Positions 14,882-15,697 of a DNA stretch of 64,000 nt are shown piece by piece. Each line of letters begins with the position of its first letter. Within the stretch, counting starts at the first letter, position 1. The notes beneath the pieces were generated by a model. The model had not been told where the DNA came from. It did no database searches and worked only from the letters and a program-made list of their open reading frames with translations. Location: the NCBI RefSeq assembly GCF_056746865.1, contig NZ_CM163382.1. One strand, given 5' to 3'. The translations under genes and the position numbers were made by a program.

Positions 14882-15697
14882 ATGTTTTCAATTCAACAAC
14901 CACTACTGGTTTTTAGCGATCTTGATGGCACCCTGCTGGACAGTCATAGTTATGACTGGCAACCGGCTGCCCCCTGGCTCAGCCGTTTACGCGAAGCGAA
15001 TGTTCCCGTCATTCTCTGTAGCAGTAAAACTTCAGCGGAAATGCTGTACTTGCAAAAAACGTTGGGGCTACAAGGGTTACCGCTGATTGCCGAAAATGGC
15101 GCAGTGATCCAGCTTGCTGAACAATGGCAGGATATAGACGGTTTTCCACGCATCATCTCAGGTATTAGCCATGGCGAAATCAGCCAGGTTTTAAATACGC
15201 TACGCGAGAAAGAACATTTTAAATTCACGACTTTCGATGATGTCGACGATGCAACCATCGCCGAATGGACGGGATTAAGCCGTAGCCAGGCGGCGCTGAC
15301 GCAGCTGCATGAGGCGTCGGTAACGCTAATCTGGCGCGACAGTGACGAGCGTATGGCACAATTTACCGCTCGTCTGAACGAACTGGGCTTACAGTTTATG
15401 CAGGGTGCGCGCTTCTGGCACGTACTGGATGCCTCTGCCGGAAAAGATCAGGCTGCCAACTGGATTATCGCGACCTATCAACAATTGTCAGGCAAACGCC
15501 CAACCACACTTGGCCTGGGCGATGGGCCAAACGATGCGCCCTTACTGGAGGTAATGGATTACGCGGTGATTGTGAAAGGGCTAAACCGTGAAGGGGTGCA
15601 TCTGCATGATGAGGATCCGGCCCGCGTCTGGCGAACGCAGCGTGAAGGACCGGAAGGCTGGGGTGAAGGGCTGGACCATTTTTTCTCCGCCCGTTAA
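14882..15697 (+). CDS. yedP: HAD-family mannosyl-3-phosphoglycerate phosphatase homologue YedP
   Basis: 271-aa ORF with HAD motif DLDGTLLD. Confidence 0.9.

Follow-up and report, generated by a model that had tools for sequence, protein, structure and literature searches.

Convergent genes whose transcripts run into one another have been described in several forms. Classic excludons have long 3' or 5' UTR overlaps and demonstrated reciprocal expression. The excludon concept itself reportedly goes back to Sesto et al. in 2013, and Ju et al., using SEnd-seq in 2019, are said to have described overlapping bidirectional terminators between convergent genes and to have proposed collision termination for the E. 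coli pairs that they mapped. Overlaps between the convergent coding sequences themselves were counted by Lillo and Krakauer (2007, PMC2174442), who found 1,890 of them in 58 species, 1,218 of at least 5 nt, so that about one third are 4 nt or shorter. [quoted passage not shown] In E. coli the same authors counted 58 convergent overlaps, with a predicted intrinsic terminator in 23 of the 116 genes involved (~20%; PMC2174442).

The window analysed here is a stretch of 64,000 nt from contig NZ_CM163382.1 (RefSeq assembly GCF_056746865.1), in which a first-pass annotation had described yedP and dgcQ as convergent genes with overlapping stop codons. The reading frames bear this description out. The tetramer TTAA at 15694..15697, in the context cccgTTAAgcg, carries both stop codons: the yedP TAA occupies 15695..15697, and the plus-strand TTA at 15694..15696 is the TAA of dgcQ on the minus strand, where an open reading frame at 15694..17403 encloses the gene. 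The features of the junction are:

14882..15697, plus strand: yedP coding sequence, a mannosyl-3-phosphoglycerate phosphatase-related HAD-IIB protein of 271 aa, stop TAA at 15695..15697 (open reading frame list and annotation)
15694..17388, minus strand: dgcQ (yedQ) coding sequence, a diguanylate cyclase with CHASE7 and GGDEF domains, 564 aa, GTG start, stop TAA complementary to 15694..15696
15694..15697, shared by both strands: the tetramer TTAA, a 4-nt tail-to-tail overlap read from the sequence

The sequence, the open reading frame list and two annotations agree on these stops. In the 100%-identical match from strain Z1323CEC0012 (RefSeq/PGAP), yedP lies at 3183..3998 on the plus strand and dgcQ at 3995..5689 on the minus strand, in locus coordinates; in curated K-12 MG1655 the genes lie at 2025511..2026326 (plus) and 2026323..2028017 (minus). 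The overlap is 4 nt in each, and neither PGAP nor the K-12 annotation gives either gene a different stop. Both genes are genuine. Of 5,426 complete E. coli genomes, 5,363 matched a 2.8-kb query around the junction, and in 5,334 the match covered at least 80% of the query; the annotated features in matching genomes were always yedP and dgcQ. YedP has a Pfam Hydrolase_3/S6PP match and is the protein of PDB entry 1XVI (E = 4e-182), whose chain aligns to YedP residues 1-271, whereas DgcQ has Pfam CHASE7 and GGDEF matches, the latter reaching residue 557 of 564. The probability that one of the genes truly stops elsewhere, and that the overlap is an artefact of annotation or sequence, is therefore negligible: the stops are set directly by the reading frames, the PGAP and curated annotations are the same, the locus recurs in 5,334 genomes, 1XVI aligns along the whole of YedP, and the orthologues end at equivalent positions. 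The pair consists of opposite-strand, tail-to-tail coding genes with both stops in one YTAR tetramer, the two features of the 4-nt convergent overlap class.

In the annotation matching the window, four convergent junctions between native genes were tallied: rcsA/dsrB (gap of 43 nt), yedP/dgcQ (overlap of 4 nt), yedA/vsr (overlap of 12 nt) and hprS/hchA (gap of 107 nt). Two of the four, yedP/dgcQ and yedA/vsr, overlap, and no special excess over chance is needed or claimed for the yedP/dgcQ overlap. The second overlapping pair, ~4 kb from the first, is formed by yedA (18976..19896, plus strand) and vsr (19885..20355, minus strand), which share 19885..19896. As annotated, vsr also overlaps dcm on the same strand by 20 nt (20336..20355), where a p19/RNase III duplex labelled 'dcm vsr' has been reported in K-12 (Huang et al., PMC7373196). 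Another convergent arrangement lies upstream of yedP, where the stop of yodD (14582..14584, plus strand) and the 3' end of dsrA, an sRNA gene (14598..14684, minus strand; Rfam 102.5 bits; site span 14357..14684), are 13 nt apart. The DsrA terminator hairpin, at 14600..14624, falls in the yodD 3' region, and dsrA itself is located between the same-strand genes yodD and yedP.

Elsewhere in the window, Rfam-type RNA matches include rseX (23086..23175, plus strand) and EFASI RNA (38401..38530, minus strand). A tRNA-Ser(CGA) gene is found at 33564..33653, and four tRNA-Asn(GTT) genes lie at 34645, 50124, 51948 and 54357 (span 34645..54432). The match to Z1323CEC0012 ends at 33627, at the tRNA-Ser gene, where that strain has a prophage with nle effector genes; the tRNA-Ser/tRNA-Asn region is a strain-variable integration hot spot. 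Two further stretches, 559..1805 and 24222..25459, are unaligned to the otherwise 99.9%-identical Z1323CEC0012, which has IS600/IS30 copies near the second of them.

We compared the junction across 20 loci with the convergent pair, obtained from a YedP scan of the genome collection and contig look-ups for six more orthologues, with both frames extended to their stops. These loci represent at least 10 genera (Escherichia, Salmonella, Citrobacter, Enterobacter, Lelliottia, Kosakonia, Scandinavium, Pseudocitrobacter, Superficieibacter and UBA5654). The gene order rcsA-dsrB-yodD-yedP-dgcQ-yodC-yedI is retained in all 20, as is the overlap between yedP and dgcQ, and none of the loci examined has a gap between the two genes. 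The overlap is 4, 16, 22, 34 or 37 nt long, always 1 mod 3:

4 nt: eight Escherichia lineages (TTAA; CTAA in one), Citrobacter amalonaticus (TTAG), C. freundii (CTAA), Pseudocitrobacter (TTAG) and Enterobacter sp. BIGb0383 (TTAA)
16 nt: Superficieibacter, UBA5654 and two species of the Enterobacter cloacae complex
22 nt: Salmonella and Scandinavium
34 nt: Lelliottia
37 nt: Kosakonia

The tetramer is thus kept as TTAA, CTAA or TTAG in 12 of the 20 loci, with longer overlaps instead in the other 8, and variation within it is confined to T1 to C and A4 to G, the two stop-preserving positions. The distance between the conserved YedP motif G-[LM]-x-[HY]-[FLW]-[FL], measured from its end, and the GRN codon conserved in DgcQ is 35, 32, 29, 26 or 23 nt. 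This spacing of only 23-35 nt between the conserved protein cores explains why every overlap is 1 mod 3, and because these distances differ in steps of 3 nt, only in-frame length changes have occurred, leaving cores that almost abut. The pattern is read most simply as an early loss of the spacer, after which the stop codons drifted in a very short interval. Two separate stops would fit into a 35-nt spacer, yet a gap is absent from all 20 loci, which may point to selection acting on the overlap or on the protein tails, as against neutral lock-in. This family-wide persistence is the sole element of the locus that we did not find already stated in the literature, and it amounts to a detail of a known kind of feature.

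Synonymous divergence among the eight Escherichia lineages was 0.28 in the last 40 codons of yedP (0.315 overall) and 0.256 in the last 40 codons of dgcQ (0.289 overall), with a range of 0.21-0.38 along the genes. A hidden functional RNA element was considered and rejected, as neither 3' end shows a dip in synonymous divergence in these lineages.

A few sequences depart from the common arrangement. YedP homologues of Halomonadaceae (L015-L018) are without an adjacent dgcQ orthologue, have only weak GGDEF matches elsewhere in the locus, and are uninformative on the junction. One contig of 291 nt (L019, NZ_JARFIK010000569.1), filed under Adlercreutzia equolifaciens, has the E. coli yedP/dgcQ junction without a single difference; the assembly to which it belongs was most likely contaminated with E. 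coli DNA. A cluster of YedP variants of 316 aa (protein P0003, 99 member sequences) extends by ~45 codons antisense into dgcQ, which looks like the result of a one-base frameshift at the T6 run 15679..15684 near the yedP 3' end. Finally, an E. coli protein of 246 aa in nr (P0092), known from a single sequence, fuses YedP residues 1 to ~174 with the 72 C-terminal residues of DgcQ; such a chimera would result from an inversion across the tail-to-tail junction or from a misassembly.

The first-pass annotation had also asserted that the overlap leaves no intergenic space for a terminator, and that transcription of each gene must run into the other. We found both assertions to be sound. The spacer is zero, and neither a consensus scan nor folding gave a terminator-like hairpin at the junction. 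The scan placed no terminator-like site near it, and the 5 sites in 14000..18000 compare with 4.0 expected from shuffles. RNA segments that span or follow the junction, on both strands, fold more weakly than shuffled sequence (z = +0.8 to +1.3; six segments were folded in all), and Rfam gives no RNA family at the junction, the nearest being DsrA at 14598..14684. No G+C-rich hairpin with a U-tract is present past the stops at the junction, and the nearest candidates are weak and unconserved:

15801..15828, plus strand: 8-bp hairpin in the yedP read-through RNA, with no U-tract; segment 15800-15920 has z = -2.3
15487..15504, minus strand: weak terminator-like hairpin from the consensus scan, inside yedP, ~190 nt past the dgcQ stop

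The stem of the first does not vary in most Escherichia, but L008 has a weakened form, L005 has lost it and other genera are without it, with no compensatory changes; the stem of the second occurs only in two E. coli sequences (L001 and L002), again with no compensatory change. Neither is conserved beyond close relatives, and both were judged incidental. With no intergenic space and no terminator at the junction, each polymerase must transcribe into the coding region of the partner gene.

This consequence of the geometry is matched by published transcript data: yedP-dgcQ is in the list of 165 convergent excludons of MG1655, with transcript boundaries that overlap in 50% or more of the 58 RNA-seq samples surveyed (ExcludonFinder, PMC12288877). 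The listing adds little, because the boundary is set from coverage around each coding sequence, a condition that overlapping expressed coding sequences meet almost automatically; it confirms that both transcripts co-occur, not that they interfere. Captured double-stranded RNA is also on record, with p19 read values in six samples of 97-400 for yedQ, 14-92 for yedP and 1-8 for yedA (Huang et al. 2020, PMC7373196). One duplex from that study can be placed in the window:

16275..16295, both strands: p19-captured RNase III-type RNA duplex, 21-22 bp (Huang et al. 2020, Table S3, entry 2024927-2024948, 'yedQ')

The entry, in older K-12 coordinates, matches the window exactly at 16275-16295, inside dgcQ and ~580 nt from the junction; no RNase III duplex is reported at the junction itself in Huang et al. 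(PMC7373196). Sense and antisense RNA coexist at this position, the antisense RNA being either yedP read-through or the product of an internal promoter. A literature search returned no paper on yedP and yedQ jointly, and for yedQ/dgcQ with antisense, Rho or convergent transcription the only pair-specific paper found was ExcludonFinder. Antisense interference between the genes, which the first-pass annotation had raised, is possible and probably weak.

How the read-through RNAs might end is suggested by their composition. Both are untranslated, unstructured and C-rich/G-poor past the stop, which is permissive for Rho and not proof of its action:

15798..16047, plus strand: candidate Rho loading region, 101-350 nt beyond the yedP stop, in the yedP read-through RNA where it runs antisense to the 3' end of dgcQ; GC skew -0.23 to -0.34, C/G 1.6-1.9 (94th-98th percentile of 100-nt windows in the whole window)
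15544..15693, minus strand: candidate Rho loading region, 1-150 nt beyond the dgcQ stop, in the dgcQ read-through RNA where it runs antisense to the 3' end of yedP; C/G 1.44-1.81 (88th-97th percentile), folding weaker than shuffles (z = +1.2 to +1.3)

The antisense strands of long open reading frames have a median C/G of 1.10, so C-rich antisense RNA is common and, taken alone, weak evidence. Rho and NusG terminate untranslated and antisense RNA. From this, together with the C-rich, G-poor and unstructured RNA on both sides, we infer that the read-through RNAs are ended by Rho-dependent termination inside the partner gene. In Adams et al. (2021), 51.5% of the mapped Rho regions are antisense (PMC7815308). 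The part of these data available to us reports no bicyclomycin-sensitive region or Term-seq 3' end within ~500 nt of the junction, low read counts limiting its power there, and no Term-seq 3' ends at K-12 2025800-2026999 (PMC7815308). It does contain one Rho region inside dgcQ:

~16658 (K-12 2027287), minus strand: published Rho termination region inside dgcQ, Rho score 2.67 (Adams et al. 2021, supplementary file 2)

Its position in the window is approximate, having been transferred from the K-12 coordinate with the junction as reference. Read counts upstream and downstream were 67 and 26 in untreated cells, and 166 and 172 with bicyclomycin (PMC7815308). The region, ~730 nt into dgcQ, suggests that transcription of the gene can end prematurely in exponential phase.

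We consider it probable that yedP/dgcQ is an ordinary, ancient tail-to-tail overlap without a dedicated function, whose read-through transcripts are ended mainly by Rho. The spacer would have shrunk in an Enterobacteriaceae ancestor, until the conserved cores of the two proteins were ~23-35 nt apart. Since then, each gene would have ended at whichever in-frame stop falls in this short stretch, and the stops would have shifted only through point mutation or in-frame indels, to give the overlap of 4 nt in Escherichia and of up to 37 nt elsewhere. There is no room for a terminator between the genes, and each mRNA therefore extends into the partner coding sequence as untranslated antisense RNA; Rho/NusG-dependent termination would end most of this RNA within a few hundred nucleotides, and the ends would then be trimmed. 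Where both genes are transcribed, the short complementary 3' regions could be cleaved by RNase III. The effect of the overlap on expression is probably small.

The overlap could alternatively be a selected convergent excludon, retained because transcribing either gene represses its partner, by interference between polymerases and by RNase III cutting where the 3' regions pair, with the consequence that cells would express the cellulose-activating cyclase DgcQ or the phosphatase YedP, not both. Its place in the MG1655 excludome list, the persistence of the overlap in 20 of 20 loci from at least 10 genera, and the comparatively high yedQ double-stranded RNA reads (97-400, versus 1-8 for yedA), with an RNase III duplex in dgcQ, all fit this idea, and excludon pairs as a class show less single-cell co-expression and higher synteny (PMC12288877). 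The ExcludonFinder criterion is, however, automatic for overlapping expressed coding sequences, the double-stranded RNA was captured 580 nt away from the junction and could come from an internal antisense promoter, and the 3' ends show no excess synonymous conservation. Few polymerases would meet, moreover, since dgcQ has low DirectRNA-seq counts in Adams et al. (67 and 26 reads per 800-nt window) and part of its transcription is stopped by Rho mid-gene. We regard selection of this kind as unlikely. Very unlikely, in our estimate, is the bolder version in which the unbroken, phase-locked overlap is under selection and convergent transcription acts as a bistable cis switch, setting c-di-GMP/cellulose signalling through DgcQ inversely to the YedP sugar-phosphate phosphatase.

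The remaining alternatives concern how the transcripts end. Head-on polymerases might terminate each other at the gene boundary, a mechanism described for hundreds of E. coli genes (Wang et al. 2022, preprint 10.1101/2022.10.23.513370) and compatible with the convergent geometry, the lack of an intrinsic terminator and the lack of a reported Rho signal at the junction in the portion of Adams et al. at hand. Yet that model needs a stem-loop in the nascent RNA and works better with heavy polymerase traffic (10.1101/2022.10.23.513370), whereas the junction is less structured than shuffled sequence, and the same portion of Adams et al. has low read counts and reports no defined 3' ends. An overlapping bidirectional terminator would have a boundary stem-loop and defined 3' ends on both strands; here folding gave z = +0.8 to +1.3, and the accessible Term-seq data contain no ends, which makes collision-driven termination quite unlikely at this site. 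Highly improbable, finally, is termination at intrinsic terminators embedded in the partner coding sequences, with yedP transcripts ending at the plus-strand hairpin 15801-15828 and dgcQ transcripts at the minus-strand hairpin 15504-15487. Both hairpins exist in this strain, and ~20% of E. coli genes in convergent overlaps are reported to have such terminators (PMC2174442), but the plus-strand hairpin is without a U-tract, the minus-strand site has only 7 pairs and a poor tail (AATTGTTGAT), the count of such sites is no higher than in shuffles, and neither hairpin is conserved past close relatives or shows compensatory changes.

An ordinary overlap with Rho-terminated read-through, the reading that we prefer, gives the junction little significance: it is annotated in the reference genome, it belongs to the commonest convergent class, and the pair has already been catalogued as transcriptionally overlapping. 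It does provide a small evolutionary footnote: the locked tail-to-tail arrangement of the two genes, with its single relative phase, predates the divergence of the enterobacterial genera. Interference between them, if true, would give a diguanylate cyclase that regulates cellulose one further control input, though none of the present observations requires it.

Set beside the described systems, yedP/dgcQ resembles convergent excludons in that the pair itself is in the ExcludonFinder list (PMC12288877), but classic excludons have long UTR overlaps and reciprocal expression, whereas the overlap here follows from the geometry of the coding sequences. The neighbouring pair yedA/vsr shares the tail-to-tail coding overlap without a spacer and is also listed as an excludon (PMC12288877). 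It differs in having a strong Rho region antisense to yedA (K-12 2030096, score 10.3; PMC7815308), a signal for which the available part of the same source reports no counterpart at yedP/dgcQ. The convergent E. coli pair mscL-arfA is in the same excludon list, and in the part of its source available to us antisense RNA crosstalk is reported (PMC10070815); it differs in that a regulatory effect is claimed by the authors. Bidirectional terminators (Wang et al. 2022, 10.1101/2022.10.23.513370) likewise serve convergent genes without canonical unidirectional terminators, but they are intergenic and use a stem-loop to position polymerase collisions, whereas yedP/dgcQ has neither intergenic DNA nor a stem-loop. 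The closest match is the 4-nt class of Lillo and Krakauer, with which the junction shares a tetramer carrying both stops, a history that the stop-codon-mutation model fits, and, as in most such E. coli genes, no predicted intrinsic terminator. We find no essential difference from that class; what yedP/dgcQ adds is the retention of the overlap, at 4-37 nt and in a fixed phase, across at least 10 enterobacterial genera. The yedP/dgcQ overlap is a real, ordinary and already annotated member of a common and well-described class.
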